From an uncultured Chloroflexia bacterium (lineage in GTDB: Bacteria; Chloroflexota; Limnocylindria; QHBO01), in contig CAWBBG010000027.1 in assembly GCA_963787025.1 (NCBI GenBank), positions 580 through 64,579 on the forward strand: DNA of 64,000 nt. Direction: 5' to 3'. Shown here in pieces: positions 19,928-43,829 of the stretch. The notes beneath the pieces are model-generated. The model was not told where the DNA came from. It did not search any database and was given only the letters and a program-made list of their open reading frames with translations. The number at the start of each line of letters is the position of its first letter. Positions within the stretch are counted from its first letter, which is position 1. The position numbers and the translations under genes are program-made.

Positions 19928-20391
19928 GGCCTGGGGAGGACCTCCAGCAGCTGGTCGAGATGGGCCTCGGGGCGGACGCGCGGAAGCACGTGCTCGACGC
20001 GCCCATCGGGCCCGATGACGAAGGTCGTGCGCTCGTTGCCCATGTAGGTCCGTCCGTAGCGGGTCTTCTCGATCCAGACCCCGAAGGCATCGGCCACCCG
20101 GTGCCCCTCGTCGGCAAGGAGCGGGTAGGGCAGCCCGAACTTCTCCCGGAACCGCACGTGGCTCGCCACCGAATCGGGAGAGACGCCGTAGAGCACCGCC
20201 CCCGCCTCCTGCAGGCGCTCCCACCCGTCACGGATGGCGCACGCCTGGGTCGTGCACCCGGGAGTGTCGTCCTTGGGATAGAAGTACAGGACGTAGCGCC
20301 GCCCGGCCAGGGTCTGGTTGGTGACCTGCTCGCCCTGGTCGGTGGTCAGGCTGAAGGGCGGGACAAGGTCACCGGCGATGGGTCTGCTCAT
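19924..20391 (-). CDS. bcp: thioredoxin-dependent peroxiredoxin BCP
   Basis: YFYPKDDTPGCTTQAC, ERTTFVIG. Confidence 0.93.
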   Translation of the reverse strand: MSRPIAGDLVPPFSLTTDQGEQVTNQTLAGRRYVLYFYPKDDTPGCTTQACAIRDGWERLQEAGAVLYGVSPDSVASHVRFREKFGLPYPLLADEGHRVADAFGVWIEKTRYGRTYMGNERTTFVIGPDGRVEHVLPRVRPEAHLDQLLEVLPRP

Positions 20392-20406
20392 GCGGGCATC
20401 GTAGCG

Positions 20407-21394
20407 TCAGGGCTCCATCTCCTCCAGCGCCACGAGCACCGGCGGCAGGTCGCGCGGCTGCAGCCGGTCGACGAGGTCGCGGGCAATCGCCTCGATGGTT
20501 GCGTCCGCGGCCTCCGACAGGGCGTGACCCGCGCCGGGGATCAGCTCCATGGACGGCTCGTCCCCCACCCCGCGGAGCACCTCGTAGAGCAGCCGCGACT
20601 CGTCCGGGTCGGCCCACGCGTCTTCGGCTCCGTGCACCAGGCTCACGGACCGATGGAGCATGGTCGCCAGCGCCATCGGCGGCGTGCGGAATGCCTGCTC
20701 CCAGGCGGCCAGGTTGAGCCGGACCGATCCCGCGGTCCCTGGGAGCGACAACGGCATGGCCCGCTCGTGCCGGGCCACCCGCTCGATGAGCTCCTCGCTC
20801 GATCGATCCAGGGCCGCGACAAACGGATGCTGACGATCGGTCCCCGTCCGGTCCCGTGCCGCGGCGCCGTGGCGCAGGAGCTCCCGACCGGAGCGGGCGG
20901 ATCCGCCGACGAGGGTGAGCGCTCCGATCGCCGGGTCCGCGACGGCCACCGAGAGGCCGATGGCCACTCCCTCTCCGTGGGCCACGATCGCCGGTCCGGG
21001 ACAGGTCGAGCTCGCGGCGGCCGCGCATGGCACCCAGCGCGTCACGCGCATCGTCGATGCGCGTGAAAAGGTCGGCGGCGGCCCAGTCACCCTCGGACGC
21101 GGCGCAGCCGCGGGCGTCGTAGCGGAACGACGCGACACCCACGCCGGCGAGCGCGCGGGCGAGGCGGTCCAGGAGACCCGGGCGGACGGGCGCCATCGGT
21201 CCGGATGCGAACCATCCAGGATGACCCCGGTCGTCGAAGACGCCGTCGCGGTCCCTCGGCAGCCAGGAGGAGAGGAGCAGCGCCCAGGGGTACCGACCGC
21301 GTCGATCTGCCGGCGCCGGCGAATCCGGCAGCAGGAGCTCGCCGGCCAGGGTGATCTCCCCGGCCCGAAACGCAGCCTCCACCGGTCGCGGCAT
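20407..21394 (-). CDS. alpha/beta hydrolase-fold protein lacking the nucleophile Ser (frameshift near 20995)
   Basis: LAGELLLP, RYDARGCAASEG, AHGEG at the nucleophile elbow, HGAED, GAGH. Confidence 0.8.
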
Positions 21395-30630: not shown

Positions 30631-33600
30631 TTGGCATCCGAGAGCCGCGACCGGGCGGGCGACCCTCAGGCGCTGATCAGCGTGGCGCAGGCCGCCGCAC
30701 AGCTGGGCGTCCACCCCAACACCATCCGCTCCTGGACCGATGCCGGTCGCCTGCCCGCGTTCCGAATCAACGCCCGCGGTGATCGCCGGTTCCGCCGCGC
30801 CGACGTGGAGATGCTCCTGGCCGAGGGCAGCCAGCAGGCCACGAACCCCATCGTCCCCTCCACCGCACCAACGCGCCGCGACCAGGAGATGGCCGTGCTG
30901 GCGCGGCTCGCCCAGGGCGCCGGGGGTCCGAGCCCGGTGGCCGTCTGCCGGGTGGCCATCGACACGCTGCGAACCCAGCTGGGGTACGAACGGGTCGCGA
31001 TCTACCTCGCCGTGCGCGGCGAGATGTGCCTCGAGACGCATGCCGGCTACCGGTTCGCGCCGCCCGCGACGCTCGACGCGACGACGGTCCAGGCCATCGT
31101 GGACACACCGGCGCACCTTGCGACTGCCGCTCCGGTGGCCCTCCCCGATGTCCGCGTGCCCCTCCGCGCGGGGTCGGAGCTGGTGGGGATCCTGGTGGTG
31201 TCCAGCACCGCTGAAGGCGGCCTCGACGCCGAGGACCTGCCGTTCCTGGAAATCGTCTCGGATGCGCTGGGCACCGCTGTCCAGAACGCGCGCATGCTGG
31301 CACGGGCACGGCGTGAGCTGACCCGTGCCCGCGCCCTGCGCGGCATCGTGCAGGAGGTCATCGGTCAGCTTGACCTGCCGACCGTGCTCGACTCGATCGT
31401 CGATCGCAGCCGCGCCCTCTTCGGAGCGGACAAGGTGGGGCTCTGGCTCGTCCTCGACGAGGACCCACCCTTCCAGCTGGCCGCGTCGCGATCAATCGGC
31501 GATGCGTTCCAGGCACGAGTCCGCTCGCTGACACTGGACAGCCCGGCCGCGGGCGTCCGCGCAATCCTCGAGCGACGAACGCACGTGGTGCAGCACGCCT
31601 CCGCCGACGCGACCGTGGGCACCATGCACGAGATCTATGCCGGCGAGGGGATCGAGACGGCCTGCCTCGTACCGGTCGTCAGCAACGAGCGGACGATGGC
31701 CGTCATCGGCCTCTACCACACCCGGCCGCACGACTGGCCCGCGGACGAGCTCAACCTGGCGCAGGCACTGGCCAACCAGGCGGCGGTCGCGATCAGCAAC
31801 GCCCGGCTGTACCACTCCGTCGCGGACCAGGCGGCCCGCATGCGCTCCATCCAGGATCTCTCTGCGCGCCTGAACCGGCTGACCGACGTGCGCGCCATCG
31901 CCGAAGCGATCGTCGCCCAGGCGAGCACCCTCGCCGAGTACCACGACATCCGCATCTACGAGGTCGACTGGGATTCGCACACCTGCGAGCCCATCGCCTT
32001 CACCCGGCGCCTTCTCGGGGAGGGCGGCGACTTCGTCGAGAAGCTTCGGGTCGAGATCGGTCCAGGGTCCTTCACCGGCACCGTCGCCGAGACGGGCGAG
32101 GCGCTCCTGATCAACGATGCGATGGCCGATCAGCGCGGACTCACCATCGACGGGACCGACGACGTCGAGGAGTCGATGCTCGTGGTCCCCATGCTGTTCG
32201 AGGGCCGCGCGATCGGCGTCCTGGCCCTCAGCAAGCTCGGCACGGACCAGTTCACCAACGACGATCTCCAGACCATGTCGATCTTCGCCGGCTACGCGGC
32301 GCAGGCCATCGCCAACGCGCGGTCCTACGCGCAGCTCGAGCGCCAGTCGGGCGAGCTGGCCCGGCAGCTGCAGTCGCAGCGCCGCCTGCTGGAGATCAAC
32401 GAGCGGCTCCTCCCGACCTTCGACCAGAAGGACGTCCTGGAACTGATCGCCGACGGGCTGCAGAGTGTGGTCCACTACGACAACCTGTCGATCTACCGCG
32501 CCGATCACACCGACCGAGTCCTGCGGCCCATGCTGAGCCGCGAGCGCTATCAGGCGGCCGTGTCGCGCTATCTCATCCCCTTCGGCCGGGGGCTGGCGGG
32601 CTGGGCGGTCGACCACGGCGAGCCGGTGCTTGCCAACGAAGCCCTGACCGATCCACGCGCCGTGCAGATCCCCGACACCCCGGCCGACCCCGAGGCGCTG
32701 TGTGTCGTGCCGCTGCTGAGCGATGGGTTCGTGATCGGCTCCCTGAACATCTCGCGCATCGGCGGCGAGGAGGCGTACTTCTCGGCGTCTGACTTCGACC
32801 TCATCAAGCTCTTCGCCAGCCAGGCCTCGATCGCGCTGCGGAACGCCGCCGCCCACTACGAGGTCAGCCAGCGGGCGGAGACGGACGCCCTGACCGAGCT
32901 GGGCAACCACGGGGCCTTCCAGCGCTACCTGGCCGAGGTCTTCGACAGCGTCGACGCGGAGGCCGGCGAGCCGCCGTTTGGCCTGCTGATGATGGACCTG
33001 GACCAGTTCAAGGACTACAACGACGGGCTCGGCCATCAGGCCGGCGATGCGCTGCTCACCGCCATCGGCAAGGCGATCGTCAAGGCGGCCCGCGGGAACG
33101 ACCGTGTCTACCGCTACGGCGGCGACGAGTTCGCCGTCGTGCTGCAGGACGTGGACCCCGCCACAGCGGCGCTGGCGGGCGATCGCATCCGTCGCGCGGT
33201 GGCGCGGATCACCGCGGGGGAGCCGCACCCGGTCACCATCACGGTGGGCGTGGCCACCTATCCGGGCGACGCCCGGGACAAGAACGCGCTGATCAACGCC
33301 GCCGACACCGCCCTCTACTACGGCAAGCAGGCGGGCGAGAACCGCGTCGTGCGCATTGCCGACGTCCCCCGTGAGATGCGCGCCCTGCGCGGCACCCTGG
33401 ACCAACTGGCCCGGGCGGCCCTCCGGCATCCCGAGGAGGCGGGGTCAATGGAGCAGCTCGTCGAGCAGGCCGCGCGGCTGGGATCCGGGATCGACGACGA
33501 GGCGTCGGCGCTGCGCGACGCGGTCCTGGCCATGGTCCGCGTCCTCGACGCCCAGAGCGCCGCCGGCCGCGGTCACGCCGACCGCGTCGCCCATCTCGCC

Positions 33601-34029
33601 CGCGCGGTGGCGGACCGGCTCGGCTGCCCGCACGACGAGTCGGACACGATAGAGCTGGCCGCGCGGCTGCATGGCCTGGAAGAGATCCCCGCCGAGGCGC
33701 TCGAAGGCGTTCGGTCGCTGCACGGTGTCAGGGAGATCCTCGGCGCCGAGCGCCGCCTGAGCGACGTCTCGCGTCGTCGGGCGCGAGGCCCCGTCTCCCT
33801 GGGTGCGGAGATCGTGGCGGCCGCCAACGCCTACGACGCCCTGGCCGGTGGCCGATCCACGACCCGACGCTCCGCCTCCGCCGCGCTGGCAGCGCTCCCG
33901 GGGAGGGCCCCGGCGGTGCGGCGTGAGGTCCTCGAGGCGGTGGGACGGATCGTCGCGGGGTCGAGCGTGCGGCCCATCACGCGCGGCCGCCGTCGAGTGG
34001 ACCGCGACGCGGAGCGCGGCGCCGCCTGA
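30631..34029 (+). CDS. excisionase-type HTH + 4 GAF + GGDEF diguanylate cyclase + degenerate HD-GYP
   Basis: SVAQAAAQLGVHPNTIRSW..GDRRF; four GAF units ending NAR/RNA; RGND..YRYGGDEF; GHADRV..AARLHG; TTG start after AGGAG. Confidence 0.92.
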   Translation: MASESRDRAGDPQALISVAQAAAQLGVHPNTIRSWTDAGRLPAFRINARGDRRFRRADVEMLLAEGSQQATNPIVPSTAPTRRDQEMAVLARLAQGAGGPSPVAVCRVAIDTLRTQLGYERVAIYLAVRGEMCLETHAGYRFAPPATLDATTVQAIVDTPAHLATAAPVALPDVRVPLRAGSELVGILVVSSTAEGGLDAEDLPFLEIVSDALGTAVQNARMLARARRELTRARALRGIVQEVIGQLDLPTVLDSIVDRSRALFGADKVGLWLVLDEDPPFQLAASRSIGDAFQARVRSLTLDSPAAGVRAILERRTHVVQHASADATVGTMHEIYAGEGIETACLVPVVSNERTMAVIGLYHTRPHDWPADELNLAQALANQAAVAISNARLYHSVADQAARMRSIQDLSARLNRLTDVRAIAEAIVAQASTLAEYHDIRIYEVDWDSHTCEPIAFTRRLLGEGGDFVEKLRVEIGPGSFTGTVAETGEALLINDAMADQRGLTIDGTDDVEESMLVVPMLFEGRAIGVLALSKLGTDQFTNDDLQTMSIFAGYAAQAIANARSYAQLERQSGELARQLQSQRRLLEINERLLPTFDQKDVLELIADGLQSVVHYDNLSIYRADHTDRVLRPMLSRERYQAAVSRYLIPFGRGLAGWAVDHGEPVLANEALTDPRAVQIPDTPADPEALCVVPLLSDGFVIGSLNISRIGGEEAYFSASDFDLIKLFASQASIALRNAAAHYEVSQRAETDALTELGNHGAFQRYLAEVFDSVDAEAGEPPFGLLMMDLDQFKDYNDGLGHQAGDALLTAIGKAIVKAARGNDRVYRYGGDEFAVVLQDVDPATAALAGDRIRRAVARITAGEPHPVTITVGVATYPGDARDKNALINAADTALYYGKQAGENRVVRIADVPREMRALRGTLDQLARAALRHPEEAGSMEQLVEQAARLGSGIDDEASALRDAVLAMVRVLDAQSAAGRGHADRVAHLARAVADRLGCPHDESDTIELAARLHGLEEIPAEALEGVRSLHGVREILGAERRLSDVSRRRARGPVSLGAEIVAAANAYDALAGGRSTTRRSASAALAALPGRAPAVRREVLEAVGRIVAGSSVRPITRGRRRVDRDAERGAA

Positions 34030-34082
34030 CCCGGAGCCCCCCAACGGATTCCCGGGTGGGGACTGCTATCATCGCGACTTCC

Positions 34083-34865
34083 ATGCAGATCCCCGTCCTG
34101 GCTGCCCTGCGCCGGGGTCGACGGCCACTCCGGATCCTGGCGACCATCCTGATCCCGCTGCTCCTGGTCGCCTGCGCCTCCGACGCGACGCCCAGCCGAA
34201 GCGCACCCCTGCCGTCTGCGAGCGGAGACGCGCCCGCGTCGACCCCCACTTCCACCCCGACGCCCACGCCACGGCCGACGCCGGACTACACGAACACGCC
34301 GGACCCGACGCTCTCCGCGCTCATACCCGACACGCTCGGCAGCGCGCCGGTCTACAAGCCCGACCCAACCAGCTACGGCGTCTCCCCCGGCGATGTCGCC
34401 CAGCCCTTCGGCGAGGTCGGCCTGCGCTTCCGCTCGCTGGTCATCGCCTACGTCGTCAGCCCGCGCCTGTCGCTGTACGCCATGCGCGTGGATGGACCCC
34501 CGGTCGATACCGGCGACCTGCGGCCCTACCTCGCCGCGGCGGGACGCTATATCGGCGTCAGCGGCCTTCAGCCCGACGCCTGGAAGGCGGCGGTCGTCAA
34601 CGGCAACCGGGTCTGGACCCGGGGCGAGGACGAGGCGACCCTGCCAAAGACCACCTTCTACTGCTGGAGCGCGGGCCAGTACGTGTTCCTCATGACCGGG
34701 TCGAGCGACGCCACCAACCGCGCGATGGTTTCCGCGCTGCCCGGTCAGCCGGCTCCCACCCCGGTCCCCACGCCGTCGTCGATCGGGAGCGGCTCCCCCG
34801 CGCCTGTCGGTTCGCCGGCCGGGTCCAGCCAGGAGGCCAGTGCCAGCCCGACGTCCGCGGGCTGA
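34083..34865 (+). CDS. hypothetical lipoprotein with Pro/Thr-rich linkers
   Basis: Lipobox LLVAC; PTSTPTPTPRPTP. Confidence 0.8.
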   Translation: MQIPVLAALRRGRRPLRILATILIPLLLVACASDATPSRSAPLPSASGDAPASTPTSTPTPTPRPTPDYTNTPDPTLSALIPDTLGSAPVYKPDPTSYGVSPGDVAQPFGEVGLRFRSLVIAYVVSPRLSLYAMRVDGPPVDTGDLRPYLAAAGRYIGVSGLQPDAWKAAVVNGNRVWTRGEDEATLPKTTFYCWSAGQYVFLMTGSSDATNRAMVSALPGQPAPTPVPTPSSIGSGSPAPVGSPAGSSQEASASPTSAG

Positions 34866-34920
34866 GTCGGGACGGCTCCCCGGTCGGCGGCTCGGTGAAC
34901 GAGCGCGTACCATCGCCCGC

Positions 34921-35959
34921 ATGACGGGCATCGAGCGTTCCGAGGCGGACCGGGGCTTCGACGCCGACTCGGACGACCGCATCGGGCGCAAGCGCGACCG
35001 TCTCGCGCGTCTGCTGCGGGTGGCCTCCATCCTGTACAGCGCGGGGAGCGGAGAGCAGGGCGTGCCGGTGACGGAGATCGCACGCCTGACCGGCATGACG
35101 ACGCGGACCGTCTACCGCGACATCAACGCACTCGACTCGGAGCTTGGCGTCCCCATCTTCCAGGCGGGTCGCGGACGGTACGGGATCGAGCGCAAGTACT
35201 TCCTGCCGCCCCTCCGCCTCTCGGTACCGGAGGCGATCGTCCTCTTCCTTGCCGCGCGCCTCATCGCCCGCTGGAGCGACGAGTACGACCAGGCCGTGGT
35301 GAGCGCCTTCACCAAGCTCGCCGATCTGCTTCCCCAGCCGATCGCCCGCCACGTCGCGGCCACCATGCTGGCGGTGGGCTCCCACTCGCCCAACGAGCCG
35401 TTCACCCGGACCTTCTCGACGGTGGCGCGCGCCTGGGCCGAAGGCCGGGTCGTGGAGATCGACTACGAGCCCGGCGAGGGCACCCGCCGGGTCACGCGCG
35501 TCCGGCCTTACTTCCTGGAGCCCGATGCGGCCCTCCGCAGCGTCTACCTCATCGGCTTCGACGACGGGGCCGATGCGATGCGCACCTTCAAGGTCGAGCG
35601 CATCCGCTCCGCCACGCTGCTGGCCGACCGCTACGAGATTCCCCGCTGACTTCGACCCGGATCGATGGCTGGCGAACTCCTGGGGCATCTGGTCGTCCGA
35701 CACGACGCCCACCGCGGCAGGTGCGCCTGCGGTTCGACTCCGGCGTGGCACATCGCGTGCGCGAGGCGATCTGGCACCGATCGCAGCGGATCACGGAGCT
35801 GGCGGACGGGGGCGTGGAGCTGAGCGTGACGGTGGCCGGCATCGTGGAGATACGACCGTGGATCCTCTCGTGGGGAGACGGCGTGGAGGTCCTTGCGCCG
35901 ACGGAGCTGCGCGATTCGGTGGCCGCGGCGGTTCGGGCTGCCGCGGCGCGCTACGGTGA
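34921..35959 (+). CDS. HTH-WYL-WCX transcriptional regulator (PafB/PafC/DriD-like; two frameshifts near 35642 and 35718)
   Basis: TTRTVYRDINAL HTH; RVRPYFL..VYLIG..RTFKVERI; then FDPDRWLANSWGIW and WHRSQ..WILSWGDGVEVLAPTELR. Confidence 0.9.
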
Positions 35960-36648
35960 GCACCACCCTCGTGGCTGACGCCGACGAGGTCGAGCTCAAG
36001 TACATCGCGGCCGACGCGCGGCCGCTCGAGGCACTGGCCCTGCTCTCGGACCTCGGTCCAGCACGGCTCGGCGCCGTGTCCGTCAACGACGAGATCGACC
36101 GCTATCTCGACACGGCCGACGGCCGCCTGGCCCGCGGCCGCTGGGCCTGCCGGCTCCGGACGCGAGGCGGCCGGACGATCGTCTCGCTCAAGGGCCCCGC
36201 GCGCGCTACCACCGGGGCCGATGCCGCGCTGCACCGCCGCCCCGAGCGGGAGGGGCCGGCTGAGGAGCGCCTCGAACCGGCGGCGTGGCCGCCGTCCCCC
36301 GCCCGAGACCTGCTCCTCGGGCTGGCCGAGGGAGGGTCGCTGGTTGAGCGACTCGTGCTGCACCAGCAGCGAGCCGAGCGTTCCGTCCTCGTCGCCGGCA
36401 AGCGGGTGGGCACCCTGAGCCTGGACCGGGTCGAGGTCCTCAAGGACCGGGAGCCGCTGGGCCGGCTCTTCGTCGTGGAGCTCGAGCTGGCCGTTCCCTC
36501 GGCGGCTGACGCTGCGCTCGTCGACGAGCTCTCGGCGGCGCTCGTGGCGGTCGACGGCCTCTCCCCGGACCCGTCCAGCAAGCTGGAGCATGCCCTGCAC
36601 CTGGTCGATGGCGCGGCGGCCGGAGCCCCGCGCACGCCCCGGCGGTGA
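35956..36648 (+). CDS. CYTH (triphosphate tunnel metalloenzyme) domain protein
   Basis: EVELKY, YLDT, RLR, SLKGP, RPERE, LSLDRV, ELEL, SKL; GTGA overlap with the WYL stop. Confidence 0.9.
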   Translation: MSTTLVADADEVELKYIAADARPLEALALLSDLGPARLGAVSVNDEIDRYLDTADGRLARGRWACRLRTRGGRTIVSLKGPARATTGADAALHRRPEREGPAEERLEPAAWPPSPARDLLLGLAEGGSLVERLVLHQQRAERSVLVAGKRVGTLSLDRVEVLKDREPLGRLFVVELELAVPSAADAALVDELSAALVAVDGLSPDPSSKLEHALHLVDGAAAGAPRTPRR

Positions 36649-38882
36649 TCCGCAATGGATCTCCCCGGCTCTCGGCCGGCGAGGTCGTGGCGCTCGTCGC
36701 CGGGCTGGTCGTCTTCGGCTATCTCGCCTGGGACGAGGCACTCTGGGATCCTCGCCTGGAGACGCCACTGCACCTCATCGCGGCGGGCGCGCTGGTAGGG
36801 CTTGCCTACCTTGCCCTCCGCCGCCGTCCCCTGCCGCGCACGAGCCTCGAGATCCCCATCCTCGTCCTCCTGGTCGCGATCGGGGTGGCGACCATCGCCA
36901 GCCAGAATCCGGGGCTCTCCGCGCGATCGCTCGCCATCAGCCTCACCTGGGCGCTCCTGCTCGGGGTGGCCCTGGTCGTGGTGCATCGGCGCCCGACCCT
37001 GACCGCGGTGACGGTCATCGTCCCGATCACCATCCTTGCCCTGTTGACGTTGGCCGAAATGATCGGCCGGCGCATCGGATGGGCCACGGCCGGTGCACCG
37101 GGGCTGCCTCCCATCCGGCTCATCGGCGAGTCGACCCCGTTCGGCTCGGTCGCGGTCGCCCCCTTCGTCCTGTCCGCGTGCTTCGCGCTCACCCTGCTGG
37201 TGCCGCGGCGCAGGATGCGGCTGACGCTCCAGGCGGCGGTGCTGGCGGTCGGTCTGCCGCTGACACTGCTCTCCGGTTCGCGCTCCGCCTGGCTCGCTCT
37301 CGCCGTCGCCGGAGTGGCAATGCTCGCTCCCGCCCTGCGCCGCCTTCGCTTCCGGATCCGCCCGCCCATCTCGCCCGGCGCCATCGCGGGCTGGATTGTC
37401 GCCGCCGTCGCCGCCGTGGCCGTGGCCGTCTACGCGGAGCCGCGGCTCACCGCGGTCAGCTCGCTCCTCTACCGTGAGCACCTGTGGCGCGACACCCTCC
37501 GCGCCTGGTCGGCAGCTCCCGTGCTGGGCATCGGACCAGGGGTGATGCCGTACGCCCGCCAGGCGGCGGCGCCGGCGGGCAGCTTCCCCGTGCACCAGCC
37601 GCACTCGCACAACCTTGCCCTGGGCGTCCTGGGCGACGCGGGGCTCGTGGGCCTGGTTGCCGCACTGGGCCTGGTCGCGGCCTTCATCTGGGTCGCCGGA
37701 CCGCATCGGTCACGCTCGCTCCGCGGGCGCGCGGCCTCGTCGCTGCTCATCGGGTTCGCGGTCGCCGGCCTGTTCGAGGATCTCACGTTCGTGCCGGGCT
37801 TCGACCTCCTGGTCCTCCTCCTGGCGGCCGTGGCACTCCACGATGCCGGAGCGATCCGCTGGGCACCCCTGCGCGGGGCCGCCGGCCCTGCGCCGATCCG
37901 GCGCGGAAGCCGCACCCTCACCGCGTTCACCGTCGCCGCGCTGGGGCTGGGCGCCATCGCCCTCGTCGTCCCCACCGTCCTCGTCGACACGGCCGGGATC
38001 GTCTATCGCGTGGCATCCGACCACGCCTGGGCGGGCGAATGGTCGAGCGCCGAGGCGGGCTACGAACTCGCGGTGCGCCTCGATCCCTGGCATCCGGCCG
38101 GCCCCAAGTCGCTGGCGGTCGCCGCAGACTACGCCGGAGACCCCTCCCTGGCCCTCGGCGCTGCGCGCCGGGCATCGCAGCTGAATCCGGGCGACGCCGC
38201 GACCTGGGCGAACCTCGCGATCCTGTGCCAGGCCGCCGGTGACCGCGGCTGCGCGCTGACCGCGGCCGGACGGGCAGTCGCCTATGCGGCGGTCGGGGGT
38301 CGCGAGGTGATCAATGCCGCCATCGTCTACGAGAAGCTGGGCGAGCACGCGCTGGCCGATGCCGCCTACCGCCGCTCCATGCTGACCACGGTCGACACGA
38401 CGCTCACCCTGTCGTGGCCGCGCCGCGTCGATCCCGGCACGACCATCCCGGCCGAGGTCAACCAGACCACGGGAGCGCTGGACCTGCTCGTGGCGCGTCG
38501 CATGAACGGCGAGGCGATCTCTCCGGAGCGCTACACGGTGCCTGCCATCCGCGCCCTGGCCTACGCGATCCTGGGCGACCGACGCGCGGCATCGGATGCG
38601 CTGGCCGCCGCCGAGCGCATGGACCCGGCGGACGTCATGACCTGGGACATCGCGGTCCTGCTGCAGCGGCACTGGGGCGAGGACGCGACCCGAGCCGCGC
38701 AGACCGGGGCTGCGCTGCGGGGCGGCCCGCTCGCGACCGGACCATCGGCGCCGCGCAGGATGGTCTGGGACATCGCCTCGTTCCGGCCCTATCCCGGCGA
38801 CGGCCTGATCAGCAACGCCGAGCGGCTCCTGCCGAAGACGCCCTGGCCCGCGATCCTCGAACCCCTGCTCCCGACCCCCTGA
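36645..38882 (+). CDS. O-antigen ligase (Wzy_C)-like membrane protein with C-terminal TPR-like repeats
   Basis: Many TM helices; SGSRSAWLA, R..LW..PVLGIGPG, HSHN..GLVGL; helical repeats such as AVRLDP and ASQLNP. Confidence 0.87.
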   Translation: MIRNGSPRLSAGEVVALVAGLVVFGYLAWDEALWDPRLETPLHLIAAGALVGLAYLALRRRPLPRTSLEIPILVLLVAIGVATIASQNPGLSARSLAISLTWALLLGVALVVVHRRPTLTAVTVIVPITILALLTLAEMIGRRIGWATAGAPGLPPIRLIGESTPFGSVAVAPFVLSACFALTLLVPRRRMRLTLQAAVLAVGLPLTLLSGSRSAWLALAVAGVAMLAPALRRLRFRIRPPISPGAIAGWIVAAVAAVAVAVYAEPRLTAVSSLLYREHLWRDTLRAWSAAPVLGIGPGVMPYARQAAAPAGSFPVHQPHSHNLALGVLGDAGLVGLVAALGLVAAFIWVAGPHRSRSLRGRAASSLLIGFAVAGLFEDLTFVPGFDLLVLLLAAVALHDAGAIRWAPLRGAAGPAPIRRGSRTLTAFTVAALGLGAIALVVPTVLVDTAGIVYRVASDHAWAGEWSSAEAGYELAVRLDPWHPAGPKSLAVAADYAGDPSLALGAARRASQLNPGDAATWANLAILCQAAGDRGCALTAAGRAVAYAAVGGREVINAAIVYEKLGEHALADAAYRRSMLTTVDTTLTLSWPRRVDPGTTIPAEVNQTTGALDLLVARRMNGEAISPERYTVPAIRALAYAILGDRRAASDALAAAERMDPADVMTWDIAVLLQRHWGEDATRAAQTGAALRGGPLATGPSAPRRMVWDIASFRPYPGDGLISNAERLLPKTPWPAILEPLLPTP

Positions 38883-38890
38883 CCGACGGT

Positions 38891-38926
38891 CCGCGCACGG
38901 GTCAGCCGCGCACGGGTCAGCCGCGC
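38891..38926. repeat. 15-bp tandem repeat (about 2.4 copies)
   Basis: ccgcgcacgggtcag ccgcgcacgggtcag ccgcgc, between convergent genes and overlapping the pseudo-ligase stop. Confidence 0.8.
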
Positions 38927-39618
38927 TCGAGCGGCAGCCGCAGCAGCAGGGCCAGCGTCGGACGGGGACGCGGCTCGGGTGGGACGACGGGAACCCGCAG
39001 CCAGGCGTCGCCGCCGGGACCGCCGCGGTAGCGTGCGTCGAGGCGGCGCGCCGACAGCCCCTCGATGCCCAGCAGCGCGAGCGCCTCGGCGACCAGCGTC
39101 CCCTCCCCGGGGTAGCCGTGCCCAACGATGGCGCGGTCACCGGGGGGCAGCACCTCGTTCAGGCGCGCCCGCCGCGTGGAGAACGGCCGGCTCAGCAGGG
39201 AGGCACCGCCGCTCCACAGCAGGTCGGACGCAACGTAGGCGGGACGCCCCGGGGAACGGCGCACCCGCGACCCGCGACCGAGCCGCTGCCGGAGCAGCCC
39301 ACCGTCCGGCCGTCCCGCCTCGTCGAGCACGAGGAGGGTCCCGTCGAGCACGACGCCGTCCGCGGTCAGCTGGCGAGAGAGGTCGCCCAGCTCCGGGAAC
39401 GACGCGAGCGCATCAGAGAGCCCGGCCACCTGGAGACGCAGCCGGCCGCCCTCGACGAACGTCACGCATCGCACGCCCGGCCACCAGGGCTCAAACCAGA
39501 ACGCCGGGTCGTCGAAGGGCGCGTCCACGGTCGTCGCCTGCATCGGCCGCAGGCGCTCGGGTAGCTGCGCGGTCGTTCGGTTCGTCTCGAGTGGGAGGCT
39601 GAGCTGGTCGTTGGTCAC
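38917..39618 (-). CDS. apparently inactive ATP-dependent DNA ligase adenylation domain (LigD/LigC-like) with putative beta-clamp motif
   Basis: RPMQA..PFDDP.FWFEPWWPG, FPEL, VVLDGTL, YVASDLL, RRARL, GIEGLSARR..Y..G..WLRV; no Lys in the protein; N-terminal QLSLPL. Confidence 0.85.
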   Translation of the reverse strand: MTNDQLSLPLETNRTTAQLPERLRPMQATTVDAPFDDPAFWFEPWWPGVRCVTFVEGGRLRLQVAGLSDALASFPELGDLSRQLTADGVVLDGTLLVLDEAGRPDGGLLRQRLGRGSRVRRSPGRPAYVASDLLWSGGASLLSRPFSTRRARLNEVLPPGDRAIVGHGYPGEGTLVAEALALLGIEGLSARRLDARYRGGPGGDAWLRVPVVPPEPRPRPTLALLLRLPLERG

Positions 39619-39628
39619 GCCCGAAAGG

Positions 39629-40552
39629 CTACGCGGTCTTGCGCCGGCGGACCGGCCGCTTCTCCTCCGCCGTGGTTGCCTTCCGAGCCGATGCGGGCCT
39701 CGCGCGACCGCGCGACGTCGCGGACTTCGGCGTTCGCTTCGTGCCCTTCTCGGCCGGCGACGCGCGCCGCCCCTCGCGCGCCTTCGCCACCGATGCCTCC
39801 AGGGCGGCCATCAGGTCTGCGATATGCGTCGGCTCCGCATGCGCCGCGGGTTGTGGCGCCTCGCCGGCGACCTTGGCCTCGATCACCCCCATCAGCGCCT
39901 CGCGGTACTCGTCGCGGTACTCCGTCGCGTCGAACGCGCCGGTCATGCTCGCCACGAGCTGCTCGGCCATGGTGCGCTCGCCCGGCTTGATCTCGACCTG
40001 GTCCTCCGGCAGGGTCAGCTCGTCCAGCGCGCGGACCTCGTCGGGCCAGTGCAGGGTGGTGAGCAGCATGGTGCTCGCGTGCGGGCTGAGCGCGGCGAGC
40101 TGCTCGCGGTCCTTGAGGACGATCTTGCAGATGGCGGTCTTGCCGGCATCGGCCAGGACAGCCTTGAGCAGGTAGAAGGCCTTGCGGCCGATCTCGTCCG
40201 GCTCCAGGTAGTACTCCTGCTTCACGAAGCGGGCGGAGGAGTCATCGGCCTCGCGGGCATCGACGAACTTCTCGATCTCGATGGCGCGGACCGTCTTGAG
40301 CGGGACCGACGCGAGGTCCTCCTCGGTCACGACGACGTACTTGCCCTTGCTCCACTCGTAGCCGCGAACCGTCTCCGAGCGCGGGATCACCTCGTCGTGG
40401 TGCGGGCAGTAGATCTTCATCTGGATCCGGTTCAGGCAGCTGGCGTGGAGCAGGTTGAAGCCGATGCTGGTGCTCTCGGTGGCCAGGTACAGCTTGACCG
40501 GGATGGTGACCAGTCCGAACTGGATCGCCCCCCGCCACATCGATCGTGCCAT
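39629..40552 (-). CDS. ku: NHEJ DNA end-binding protein Ku
   Basis: MARSMWRGAIQFGLVTIPVKLY, RGYE, YYLEPD, YRDEYRE, DLMAALEASV, basic tail. Confidence 0.96.
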   Translation of the reverse strand: MARSMWRGAIQFGLVTIPVKLYLATESTSIGFNLLHASCLNRIQMKIYCPHHDEVIPRSETVRGYEWSKGKYVVVTEEDLASVPLKTVRAIEIEKFVDAREADDSSARFVKQEYYLEPDEIGRKAFYLLKAVLADAGKTAICKIVLKDREQLAALSPHASTMLLTTLHWPDEVRALDELTLPEDQVEIKPGERTMAEQLVASMTGAFDATEYRDEYREALMGVIEAKVAGEAPQPAAHAEPTHIADLMAALEASVAKAREGRRASPAEKGTKRTPKSATSRGRARPASARKATTAEEKRPVRRRKTA

Positions 40553-40768
40553 CGATCGTTCGTCCCTCGCGTTTCGCGGCCGCGCCCTCGCATGGCCCCG
40601 TGGGGACGGCGCGGGCGGTGACTATACACCGGCGCACCAAGCGATCCGGACCCTCCGTCAAGGTCGGGTCGAGCGTGCCGGCCCCGGACCCCGGTACGCC
40701 GGAGGTACCACTCCGATGGGCCCATTCCGCCATTGCCGCGGACGGTGCGCGGCCGCCACACTCTCTTC

Positions 40769-41203
40769 ATGACCGCGTCGCCGTTCTCCATGACACTGCC
40801 CGCAACCCGTGCCTCCGTCGAGGAGGAGCCGCTGCGCGCCTATGTCCTCGAGGATGATCCGGACATCGCCGCGCTCGAGGCCGACCTGCTCCGCGAGCTC
40901 GGCTACACCGTGGTCACCTGCTCACGGATCGTGGAGCTCGGGGATCTGATGGCGGTGGCCCTGCCGCATGTCCTGGTCGTGGACGTCATGCTGCCCGACG
41001 GCGACGGCGGCGACATCGCGGAGCTCCTCCGTCAGACCTGGCCCGGCATCCCGGCCGTCTTCGTCAGCGCGGTCTCCCATAGCCGGCTCTCCGAGCTTGA
41101 GCGACTGGGTCCCATCCTGGCCAAGCCGTTCGACATCGATCGGTTCCGCGACGCCGTGGCGGACGCCGTCGAGGCGCCGTCGGAACGCTGGGCTTCGCGC
41201 TGA
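40769..41203 (+). CDS. single-domain response regulator (receiver)
   Basis: LEDDP, VVDVMLPDGDG, VSA, KPFD; alternative start at 40790. Confidence 0.87.
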   Translation: MTASPFSMTLPATRASVEEEPLRAYVLEDDPDIAALEADLLRELGYTVVTCSRIVELGDLMAVALPHVLVVDVMLPDGDGGDIAELLRQTWPGIPAVFVSAVSHSRLSELERLGPILAKPFDIDRFRDAVADAVEAPSERWASR

Positions 41204-41222
41204 CCGGATGCGGTAACCGCCC

Positions 41223-41987
41223 ATGCGCGTGATCCGGCTGGCTGACACGAACGTCCTTCGGCGCGGGCCGGCCGTCCTCGCCGCCCTGATGCTCACCGTG
41301 GGCGGCGTCTCCTCGGTGCTCGCCATCGTTGCCCCGGCGCGCCGTCCGGAGGCGAGCGCCCTCCTGGCGATCGTCGCCGCCCTGGCACTGGGCGTCGGCG
41401 CCGGGTGGTTGGGGCAGCTGGTCCGCCTGCATCGCAGCGGCGCACCCGAGGACCTGGTCCGCCTCCTTTCCGGCTCGCTCGACGACGCCTATCTGCTCCT
41501 CCTCAGCCCGCGCCTCCCCGGGGTCCCCGCGGAGGTCGAGGCGCTCCTGGTCGGGCCGCCGGGCGTGCGCACCGTGATCGTCCGGCGCTGGCATGGCCGC
41601 TACCGCGTCCGAGGGCACGGCTGGGATTTCGACGCACGCGGACACAGGGGCTGGATCCCCTGCATCACGAACCCCTCGTTCGAGGGCACCGCGGCCCGCA
41701 ACGCTGTGGCGACCTGGGCCCGCGGCGCGGGCCACGAGAACCTGCCCATCGAGCCGGCGATCGCGTTTCCCGACCGGCACAGCCGGCTGGTCCTCGAAGA
41801 GCCGGAACCGGAGATCATCACCATCCACAACGTGCCGTGGTGGGCGAACGGCATGGGACGGGTCCAGCGGATGAACGCCGAGCGGGTCATCACCTTCGCA
41901 GAGGCAGTGATCGACGCGTCCCGGGCCGGTGGCGGCAACGGGCCGATGGCGGCCGACGACACCCGTCTCACCCACCACGCCAGCTGA
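41223..41987 (+). CDS. membrane-anchored NERD-like protein with degenerate active site
   Basis: Two N-terminal TM helices; EVEALLVGPPGVRTVIVRRWHG..W..NP pattern. Confidence 0.72.
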   Translation: MRVIRLADTNVLRRGPAVLAALMLTVGGVSSVLAIVAPARRPEASALLAIVAALALGVGAGWLGQLVRLHRSGAPEDLVRLLSGSLDDAYLLLLSPRLPGVPAEVEALLVGPPGVRTVIVRRWHGRYRVRGHGWDFDARGHRGWIPCITNPSFEGTAARNAVATWARGAGHENLPIEPAIAFPDRHSRLVLEEPEPEIITIHNVPWWANGMGRVQRMNAERVITFAEAVIDASRAGGGNGPMAADDTRLTHHAS

Positions 41988-41993
41988 CGGGGT

Positions 41994-42632
41994 CTATCCC
42001 TCCTGCGTTCCCGCGGGACCCTCTCGACCGTGGTCGCGCGCATCCCGCGCCGTGAGCCAGCCCCTGGCCGTCTGCTCGTCAAGGATCTCCGCGAGCAGCT
42101 CGTCAGGGCGCTCATCGTCGGCGACCAGGAGAACATGGGCGTGGCGGCGCTGGACGGCGACCGCCTCGACCGACCGGGCAACCTCCGGATGCTCGGCCGA
42201 GACGATGGCCGCATCGGTGACGGTCACGAACCGGTCCGCCGCGTTGAGCAGCCCGTCCACCGGGCGACTCCCCTGTGGGACGTGGATCGTGCCGGTCACC
42301 CGGAAGGGCGGGACCCCGATCTGGGCCTTCACGGCTCGCTTGGGGATGCGCATCTCGGGGCGCGGGGTTCCCTCCGTGGCCGCGACGCAGAGGAGCACCT
42401 CGTCGAGCGCGACATGTACCTGGCGCGCGCCGAGCGTCGCGGTCGGGTCCGCGAACTCTGAGACGGTCGCCTCCTCCACCAGCAGGTGGGTCGACGTGAC
42501 CTGGTTGAGGATGTCGCCGACGCGCGAGAACCGCGTGGCCGTGGAGCCTGAGACCCGGTAGGCGGCGGTGTAGAGGTCCAGGCTCACCCGCGGGAGGGCC
42601 GCGTCGAACGGGTCGGCAGCGAACGCGTTCAT
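41994..42632 (-). CDS. hypothetical protein with two tandem beta-rich repeats (DUF6812-like)
   Basis: Internal duplication YRVSGS..RVGDILN..LLVEEATV versus FRVTGT..RPVDGLLN..VTVTDAAI. Confidence 0.75.
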   Translation of the reverse strand: MNAFAADPFDAALPRVSLDLYTAAYRVSGSTATRFSRVGDILNQVTSTHLLVEEATVSEFADPTATLGARQVHVALDEVLLCVAATEGTPRPEMRIPKRAVKAQIGVPPFRVTGTIHVPQGSRPVDGLLNAADRFVTVTDAAIVSAEHPEVARSVEAVAVQRRHAHVLLVADDERPDELLAEILDEQTARGWLTARDARDHGREGPAGTQEG

Positions 42633-42719
42633 GGTCCGCCGATCCTAGCAGGCCCGGTGGCAGCGCCGGGACCGACGCAGGTGTTGACGGGCACCATCGG
42701 TCCGTGCTCTGCTTCCGCC

Positions 42720-43752: not shown

Positions 43753-43829
43753 GCCCCCATCGTCTAGAGGCCTAGGACGCCACCCTTTCAAGGTGGAGAT
43801 CACCGGTTCGAATCCGGTTGGGGGTACCA
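43753..43829 (+). tRNA. tRNA-Glu (anticodon TTC)
   Basis: Acceptor gccccca/tgggggt; anticodon arm ccacc-ctTTCaa-ggtgg; T-arm GGTTCGAATCC; encoded CCA. Confidence 0.96.

Follow-up and report, generated by a model that had tools for sequence, protein, structure and literature searches.

Directly behind the ku gene of an uncultured Chloroflexia bacterium from soil (GTDB lineage Bacteria; Chloroflexota; Limnocylindria; QHBO01) lies a gene for a protein that carries the nucleotidyltransferase (NTase) domain of the DNA ligases LigD and LigC with its catalytic residues replaced. We call this protein the pseudo-ligase. Both genes belong to a stretch of 64,000 nucleotides (contig CAWBBG010000027.1 of assembly GCA_963787025.1, positions 580 to 64,579 of the forward strand), which is the window to which coordinates refer unless a contig or locus is named. 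The pseudo-ligase gene occupies positions 38917-39618 of the minus strand (233 codons and a stop) and encodes a LigD/LigC-type NTase domain without the nucleophile and without an OB domain. On the sequence evidence, it is a member of a conserved family that has lost its catalytic residues and evolves under purifying selection. We suggest that the pseudo-ligase is a non-catalytic accessory subunit of the Ku end-joining machinery, possibly one that connects Ku to the replication sliding clamp. This adaptor model, taken as a whole, may be right or wrong with about equal probability, and its parts are of different strength.

A ligase fold with altered catalytic motifs

A preliminary description of the locus, made from the letters of the DNA, had reported an intact 233-amino-acid open reading frame 10 nucleotides behind ku with the LigD/LigC adenylation pattern, which the sequence, Pfam and phmmer all bear out. 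The protein matches the Pfam model DNA_ligase_A_M (PF01068) at 3.3e-8 (33.9 bits; cut-off 26.2), and the NTase domain is the only part matched. The closest solved structures are those of the Mycobacterium tuberculosis LigD ligase domain (6nhx/1vs0; phmmer, 1.8e-15). The NCBIfam models of ligases of non-homologous end joining (NHEJ) are missed, with 79.6 bits against a cut-off of 227.75 for TIGR02779 and 96.4 against 989 for NF007210. An AlphaFold2 model built from 93 family sequences has a mean predicted local distance difference test score (pLDDT) of 89.7 and is confident for residues ~21-210. This folded NTase (adenylation) domain is encoded at 38989-39558 on the minus strand, reaches a pLDDT of 92-98 over most blocks and is also supported by the phmmer alignment to LigD. 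The top Foldseek matches are ATP-dependent DNA ligases, including LigD 6nhx/1vs0 (E 1.9e-14 to 3.9e-11).

The catalytic motifs of this fold have been rewritten. Motif I, at 39469-39495 on the minus strand, reads F42-E-P-W-W-P-G-V-R50 in place of fE-x-K-x-D-G-x-R. In the phmmer alignment, fEgKWDGyR of LigD is matched by fEpWWPGvR, which places W45 at the position of Lys481 and P47 at that of the motif Asp. The codons here are tgg tgg ccg, so that each replacement of Lys or Asp needs two to three base changes; the earlier argument that multi-base substitutions are not read errors is upheld by the LigD alignment and these codons. Further changes from LigD to the pseudo-ligase are DGE to DGT, FDLL to SDLL, EGviaK to EGLSAR and wvK to WLR, and the altered motifs III, IIIa, IV and V are conserved in the family alignments A2 and A4. 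The OB domain (PF04679) is absent according to Pfam, as had been described, and the protein ends 23 residues past motif V. No further sequence is possible in the gene, because only 35 nucleotides separate its stop from the end, at 38882, of a convergent Wzy_C/TPR gene. A split ligase with a separate OB gene was considered and rejected, as PF04679 matches only LigD and LigC in the assembly. A search for longer relatives returned no fused pseudo-ligase forms at E<=1e-20, which is weak evidence. With motifs I, III, IIIa, IV and V altered and the OB domain gone, the pseudo-ligase is predicted to be incapable of adenylylation and is not classifiable as a ligase by these motifs.

The pseudo-ligase contains 0 Lys and 29 Arg. 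The preliminary description had singled out the lack of Lys; its conclusion that such a protein cannot be adenylylated stands, and the special status given to the composition does not. Lysine makes up 1.5% of residues in this genome, and by a crude gene prediction 63 of 496 open reading frames of 180-300 amino acids (13%) have none. Among species-level loci, 57 of the 68 counted encode no Lys and 11 encode one. The NTase cores of same-genus ligases hold seven Lys in LigD, seven in LigC and four in the LigB-type enzyme, and we attribute the loss of seven relative to the LigD and LigC cores to lost catalytic constraint together with a GC-driven bias towards Arg. The absence of lysine is thus partly a composition effect and less special than it looks; more important is that none of the seven Lys of a same-genus LigD or LigC core is left, whereas the adjacent Ku has 21. 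Its reading as a special signal, for example of avoided modification, was set aside because of the 63 similar frames.

Conservation, selection and coupling to ku

Of 8000 candidates scored in a word-index search, 795 were relatives at E<=1e-3. The 120 best, one of which is the window's own protein, are 200-246 amino acids long and 61-82% identical, they all carry FEPWWPG, and those with a named source come from Limnocylindria or Chloroflexota. In a library of representatives at 50% identity, only 20 clusters fell below 1e-30, followed by ordinary LigD/LigC ligases. A pattern scan with one genome per species yielded 288 relatives, and the species-level (GTDB) locus counts given throughout refer to the best 80 of these 288, nearly all of which are labelled Chloroflexota or Limnocylindria with a few under other phylum labels. 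In the window's family, 21 of 23 genomes have an orthologue (two genomes are unpublished). Database names for the relatives are "hypothetical protein" or "LigD", and the ESM Atlas offered only "hypothetical protein" and ligase-domain clusters from Chloroflexota.

The motif FE[PA]WWPG is present in 80 of 80 species-level loci and the pseudo-ligase is intact in all 21 relatives' loci parsed. The ratio of nonsynonymous to synonymous substitution rates (dN/dS) is 0.08-0.19 with a mean of 0.14, at a dS of 0.5-1.0 (15 pairs among six same-genus genes). The preliminary description had allowed for orthologues that keep KxDG, for neutral evolution of this copy and for an unconserved QLSLPL; these are contradicted by the loss of Lys in 80 of 80 loci, the retention of an N-terminal QLxL motif in 94 of 101 and the low dN/dS.

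The association with ku is tight. In 21 of 22 relatives' loci ku lies directly upstream on the same strand, the remaining locus being cut by a contig end. The same holds for 77 of the 80 species-level loci, with two cut and one having overlapping matches in different frames. In the window, a spacer of 10 nucleotides (39619-39628, minus strand) separates the TAG stop of ku from the GTG start of the pseudo-ligase at 39618. Across 69 parsed ku/pseudo-ligase pairs the spacer measures 4-13 nucleotides apart from a single case of 25, and 67 of the pseudo-ligase genes start with GTG. The short spacer and the GTG start suggest translational coupling to ku. The database gene call for the window copy (P0001) begins at Met26 and gives a protein of 208 amino acids, as do the calls for ~30 of the 120 top relatives by hand count. 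In the part before Met26, the amino acids are conserved and the Leu codons vary among CTC, CTG and CTT, and we therefore regard the long form of 233 amino acids as the real one.

Two conserved tails and a clamp-like motif

The folded domain is flanked by two flexible tails. Residues 1-20 and 211-233 have a pLDDT of 56-76 and no secondary structure in the AlphaFold2 model, and each tail holds a linear motif. The N-terminal motif QLSLPL covers residues 5-10 (39589-39606, minus strand; pLDDT 56-68) and has the family consensus [DE]QLxL[PS][VIL]. The C-terminal motif LALLLRLPL spans L222-L230 behind a Pro-rich linker (38929-38955, minus strand; pLDDT 65-76) and ends in LRLPL at residues 226-230. 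Both motifs had been pointed out before, the first as a clamp motif of the Hda type, and the likeness to Hda is borne out: according to the accessible part of PMC5397184, Hda carries 6-QLSLPL-11 and places Leu7, Leu9, Pro10 and Leu11 in the clamp cleft. ImuB, for which the accessible part of PMC10421592 gives 352-QLPLWG-357 as a validated clamp motif, was rightly named as a precedent for a dead enzyme that serves as a clamp adaptor.

The seven related loci without QLxL comprise QLRF (one), EPLPLE (one), RLELHV (two), a missing motif (one), an N-terminus cut by the contig (one) and a frame running off the contig (one). The set of 94 sequences was chosen by QLxL itself, so that only its codon variety and motif positions 3, 5 and 6 are informative; of the 94, 73 have Pro and 16 have Ser at position 5, and 78 carry Val, Ile or Leu at position 6. 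The commonest form in the family is QLPLPV, and the genus of the window has QLSLPL. The C-terminal tail has the family consensus RP-T-L-A-L-[IL]-[LQ]-R-L-P-L, found as a strict pattern in 73 of 79 complete C-termini; the six misses have Gly for Pro (three), the motif outside a 16-residue search span (one) or a divergent end (two). A relaxed pattern is present in 94 sequences, again with varied codons. Both tails are hence conserved at the protein level with varied codons. Under the strict patterns, no other protein of the window's genome carries either tail. The same genome encodes DnaN (contig C24) and a DinB that carries QLTLF, and one relative without the motif I Lys starts with MPQLSLF, the pentapeptide form of the clamp motif. 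QLSLPL of the pseudo-ligase is, at the level of its residues, a match to the sliding-clamp consensus, located in a flexible terminus and conserved among orthologues. That the N-terminal tail binds the sliding clamp is an even prospect, with binding and its absence given the same weight.

Probable binding to Ku

The ku gene of the window (39629-40552, minus strand) encodes 307 amino acids, matches Pfam Ku at 2e-40 and TIGR02772 at 2.8e-80, and is the sole Ku match in the assembly. The protein consists of the core and a basic C-terminal extension ending in RRRKTA, contains 21 Lys, and has a tip that is conserved in a Ku alignment of 50 rows. Nearly all of 73 family Ku sequences parsed end in RRRK[TS]A (window 39629-39650), and in a distant metagenomic clade (loci L165-L197), whose Ku is only ~40% identical, 24 of 25 end in [RA]RRKAS. 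The tip is a conserved end on an otherwise variable basic tail.

We consider it likely that the pseudo-ligase partners Ku. In M. tuberculosis, the Ku C-terminus contacts residues D522, K579 and L580 in the NTase part of the LigD ligase domain, and the substitution L580E weakens binding, as given in the accessible part of PMC13717202. Since this published interface lies partly on the NTase part, the prior for Ku binding is good. In a hand mapping of the phmmer alignment, K579 and L580 of LigD fall on R152 and L153 of the pseudo-ligase, and L153 is invariant in the alignments A1, A2 and A4. A complex model of Ku2 with the pseudo-ligase gave an interaction prediction score from aligned errors (ipSAE) of 0.51 (runs of 0.55, 0.51 and 0.47), against 0.00 for the best of three controls, with a contact agreement of at least 27% and a partner pLDDT of at least 73. 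In the calibration of this score, 58 of 80 solved complexes passed the threshold, as did 2 of 110 mismatched pairs, and the passes at 0.60 or under comprised 7 of the 80 solved complexes and both passing mismatches. At 0.51 the score lies in a range in which most passes are false unless the pairing was already probable on other grounds, and the model lends weak support. The earlier proposal of a ligase mimic that binds Ku is upheld in the tight coupling of the gene to ku, and direct binding is supported to this weak degree by the complex model.

Only one complete genome of the family (95% complete) lacks the pseudo-ligase. At its locus (L250, G023:C77), Ku is encoded at 1237-2031 on the minus strand, is 264 amino acids long, has no basic C-terminal extension, and is abutted by a WYL regulator gene. 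The Ku tail and the pseudo-ligase could have been lost together in this single case.

Ancestry and relatives with active ligases

Ligases that look active, as judged from their motifs, occupy the place of the pseudo-ligase in other lineages. All seven loci from the Limnocylindria sister families f2 and f5 encode a stand-alone ligase immediately after ku, with sequence beyond the NTase domain and a size of ~330-350 amino acids, judged from stop-to-stop frames of 357-670 amino acids. These ligases keep FE[VL]KWDG, DGE, FDLLY, VAKRR and DWLK, and their C-terminus [DE]RPRL[IV][VL]L.SL.. is homologous to the C-terminal tail of the pseudo-ligase. A metagenomic clade represented by P0147 combines NTase and OB domains (Pfam) with the motif FEVKWDGLR, an N-terminal DQLQIELES and a C-terminal LTRFPF. 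Of 34 loci with this ligase, 30 have ku directly before it and four have no upstream sequence. No description of these tail-bearing, ku-coupled ligases was found within the literature searched.

Further relatives have lost the motif I Lys in other ways, with EPSWDG, EPRWGG, EPAWGG or EPLYDG (the last with N-terminal QLSLF) in its place. These variants retain the N-terminal motif, and P0263 and P0235 retain the C-terminal tail as well. P0263 is 362 amino acids long and still has an OB-like region, with the same C-terminal tail following it; the tail thus behaves as a portable module. In FastTree phylogenies, the WWPG clade is supported by Shimodaira-Hasegawa-like values of 1.0 and 0.998 and the [ST]WGG clade by 0.97. 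The pseudo-ligase is most likely, judging from these comparisons, a degenerate descendant of a ku-coupled, tail-bearing ligase that kept only its binding functions. The case for descent from a ku-coupled ligase is built on gene position and shared tails, not on the tree.

Proposed function and alternative explanations

We suggest the following model. The ancestor would have been a stand-alone ligase behind ku that already possessed the C-terminal docking tail and an N-terminal hydrophobic motif. In the family of the window (f1), the OB domain and all adenylation residues would have been lost, with the NTase fold and both tails kept by selection. The pseudo-ligase would be made together with Ku through the coupled GTG start, and its NTase body would bind Ku, possibly along with the DNA end, much like the LigD ligase domain. 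The N-terminal tail might then bind the sliding clamp and the C-terminal LxLxLRLPL tail might dock at a second site, which could be the other clamp protomer or Ku. Ku-bound ends would in this way be tied to clamp-marked DNA, and sealing would be left to a separate LigD or LigC. A stricter version, in which the N-terminal QLxLPΦ and the C-terminal [IL][LQ]RLPL each fill one cleft of the DnaN dimer with the body on Ku, is a doubtful extension of this model.

Several observations weigh against the adaptor model. The case for clamp binding is one of motif likeness, and motif position 6 is non-hydrophobic in 16 of 94 sequences. The N-terminal tail of the f2 and f5 ligases reads [HQ]P[IV]L[IL]DV and mostly lacks the Gln; given that these are the closest active ku-coupled ligases, the ancestral N-terminal tail was probably not a canonical clamp motif. 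Because homologous tails occur on active ku-coupled ligases, the tails could be Ku-docking rather than clamp-docking elements, and their tracking of ku-coupled ligases agrees just as well with docking on Ku. The Ku complex model passed in the weak band and gave no interface, and the AlphaFold2 model is silent on DNA or nucleotide binding. In five genomes of the family f3, a related FEP[ST]WGG protein lacks the OB domain as well as the Lys of motif I and keeps both tails, although ku lies on another contig. Finally, the deep nodes of the trees have supports of 0.16-0.69, too low to name the sister active ligase or the number of independent Lys losses.

The alternative that survives best is a structural subunit that docks on Ku and has no part in clamp binding. 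Both tails would be bacterial Ku-binding motifs that once recruited a stand-alone ligase without a POL domain, and the dead remnant would be kept for end bridging, end protection or complex stability, as a counterpart of inactive DNA ligase IV (Lig4). This explanation fits the homologous tails of active ligases that follow ku immediately in two separate lineages, and also the missing Gln in the nearest active relatives. The alternating hydrophobic residues of both tails can be read as strand-forming, and a symmetric Ku dimer could accept two similar tails. The weak pass of the Ku2 complex (0.51 versus 0.00 for the best control) and the single genome (G023) in which Ku has neither the basic extension nor a pseudo-ligase after it point the same way, and a structural role has been published for inactive Lig4 (accessible parts of PMC9638927 and PMC11754673). 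However, this explanation has to treat the identity with the Hda hexapeptide and the switching of the family between QLSLF and QLxLxL forms as coincidental. In addition, five genomes keep related tail-bearing proteins at a distance from ku, and the literature searched yielded no bacterial Ku-binding peptide motif. We regard docking on Ku without the clamp as possible and, on its own, rather unlikely.

A related explanation holds that the dead NTase domain is a decoy or regulator, which would occupy the Ku surface used by the LigD ligase domain and thereby delay or gate ligation or hand the end over to LigD. It would account for the retention of the NTase fold, including the helix whose LigD counterpart (K579/L580) touches the Ku C-terminus, and it agrees with the intact LigD and LigC encoded elsewhere in same-genus genomes and with the near-equal amounts of Ku and pseudo-ligase that coupled translation would produce. 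It gives no reason, however, for the conservation of two flexible tails to the same degree as the core, and the Ku complex model gave no interface. We consider a decoy improbable. Taken together, the purely structural or gating explanations, the decoy variant included, form a serious minority possibility that falls somewhat short of even.

Residual chemistry or ligand sensing is very unlikely. An Arg-lined pocket could bind a nucleotide, a 5'-phosphate or an adenylylated end, with the protein acting as an end sensor or using another nucleophile. The phosphate-contacting positions retain their positive charge through R50 (the Arg of motif I), R191 and R208, all three invariant in alignment A4. 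Covalent nucleotidyl transferases of the NTase fold are known to use the motif I Lys, however, and here the whole protein is free of Lys, the adenine-stacking Phe has become Ser, the ribose-contacting Glu has become Thr, and Trp-Trp-Pro replaces K-x-D in 80 of 80 loci. A decaying ligD or ligC fragment or an annotation artefact without function, to which the shortness relative to ligases, the frameshifted genes elsewhere in the assembly and the database start at Met26 might point, is rejected on the dN/dS of ~0.14, the 21 intact loci, motif I in 80 of 80 loci, the C-terminal tail in 73 of 79 complete ends, the GTG start conserved directly behind ku, and the protein-level conservation with synonymous changes before Met26, and it deserves practically no weight.

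Other ligases and genomic surroundings

Same-genus genomes encode intact LigD (frames of 908 and 951 amino acids with KWDGYR) and LigC-like genes, and relatives hold a ligase of 574-583 amino acids ~3-5 kb from the ku/pseudo-ligase pair. The active ligD that the preliminary description had suggested looking for elsewhere is intact within the genus, but in the window's own assembly ligD is split over two frames (C2:~39900-42700). The ligC-like gene is split over three (C6:~20000-21350), and both Lys-bearing ATP ligases of the assembly are disrupted near motif I. A dnaE-family gene (C10:61687-62461) and a WYL/PafBC-like regulator (window ~35500-36540) are also split relative to intact same-genus orthologues, which makes assembly indels as likely as real decay for ligD and ligC. 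The same-genus genome G005 has an ATP-dependent ligase of 576 amino acids with an extra N-terminal region and a gene of 776 amino acids between DUF6812 and molybdopterin oxidoreductase genes. At window 42632-42657, the flanking genes are only 24 nucleotides apart, and the assembly, which is 81% complete, yielded no G005-type ligase.

A second short ligase-like paralogue is encoded in the window's genome (C22:25274-26050; locus L002:1345-2121, plus strand). It has 258 amino acids, matches PF01068 at 9.6e-10 and has no OB domain. Its motif I reads VEPCWKGMR, with Cys at the Lys position and a Lys two residues on, and its motif III reads IDGVW. Many relatives have frames of comparable length that match it at ~25-29% identity, and the paralogue may represent another non-canonical or dead ligase family. 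PADLOC returned no defence-system match for the pseudo-ligase, Ku or this paralogue.

The surroundings of the ku/pseudo-ligase pair are shared with relatives on both sides. One side (window 30631-36648) holds genes for a MerR-HTH/GAF/GGDEF protein of 1132 amino acids, a WYL/PafC-like regulator, a CYTH-domain protein and a Wzy_C/TPR membrane protein, and the other (window 40733-41203) a receiver-domain protein. The WYL regulator could control ku. A promoter and terminator scan of 38700-40900 found none and was uninformative. A tRNA-Glu gene with anticodon TTC lies at window 43753-43829 on the plus strand.

Implications and comparison with known systems

Textbook accounts of bacterial end joining involve two proteins, Ku and LigD. 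The family described here indicates that, in a large lineage from soil and freshwater, a third component has been retained, which is non-enzymatic, derived from a ligase and apparently coupled to Ku in translation. If the pseudo-ligase binds Ku, it would be a natural experiment on what NHEJ ligases do as structural components, apart from catalysis. To our knowledge, such a role has so far been seen only with engineered Lig4 mutants. If the Hda-type tail binds the clamp, break repair would be linked to the replication machinery in bacteria, and the reading with both tails in DnaN clefts, if true, would for the first time connect end joining in bacteria physically with the replication clamp. Given the tails on active ku-coupled ligases, clamp-assisted end joining could in that case reach beyond this family, as an overlooked mode of NHEJ in bacteria. 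Either way, the family's two peptide motifs, both short and portable, and its small, well-folded domain lend themselves to simple binding assays. Automatic annotation obscures the family by naming it "LigD" or "hypothetical" and often by starting the protein at Met26, which removes the N-terminal motif. Neither a dead DNA ligase in bacterial NHEJ nor a link between Ku and the clamp was found in the accessible parts of the open literature searched (including PMC8656161, PMC7470946, PMC10140301 and PMC13212565), and two ligase reviews make no mention of such a ligase in their accessible parts.

The pseudo-ligase is best described as a pseudoenzyme offshoot of NHEJ ligases, with the clamp link as the bold part of the proposal. 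The ligase domain of LigD and LigC (PF01068 and PF04679) shares with it the NTase fold and the encoding with ku and includes its closest sequence relatives. The pseudo-ligase differs in the absence of the motif I Lys and of the OB, POL and PE domains, and in the presence of two conserved terminal peptides. The f2/f5 and P0147 ligases share its place behind ku, a homologous C-terminal tail and an N-terminal hydrophobic motif, but they keep KWDG, DGE, FDLL, VAKRR and DWLK, and P0147 has an OB domain. ImuB, the inactive Y-family polymerase of the mycobacterial mutasome, is likewise a dead repair enzyme, and its QLPLWG is close to the family form QLPLPV (accessible part of PMC10421592). Its fold and pathway are different, however, and clamp binding is experimental for ImuB, whereas for the pseudo-ligase it is predicted from the motif. 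Hda, a regulator of DnaA in Escherichia coli, has the same QLSLPL at residues 6-11, against residues 5-10 of the pseudo-ligase, on a flexible segment in both cases (accessible part of PMC5397184), but it is an AAA+ protein unrelated to ligases or Ku. Inactive Lig4 provides a functional parallel, in which the ligase body supports end joining structurally while another ligase seals the break (PMC9638927 and PMC11754673, accessible parts). Inactive Lig4 is an engineered, full-length, eukaryotic point mutant, whereas the pseudo-ligase is naturally evolved, truncated and bacterial.

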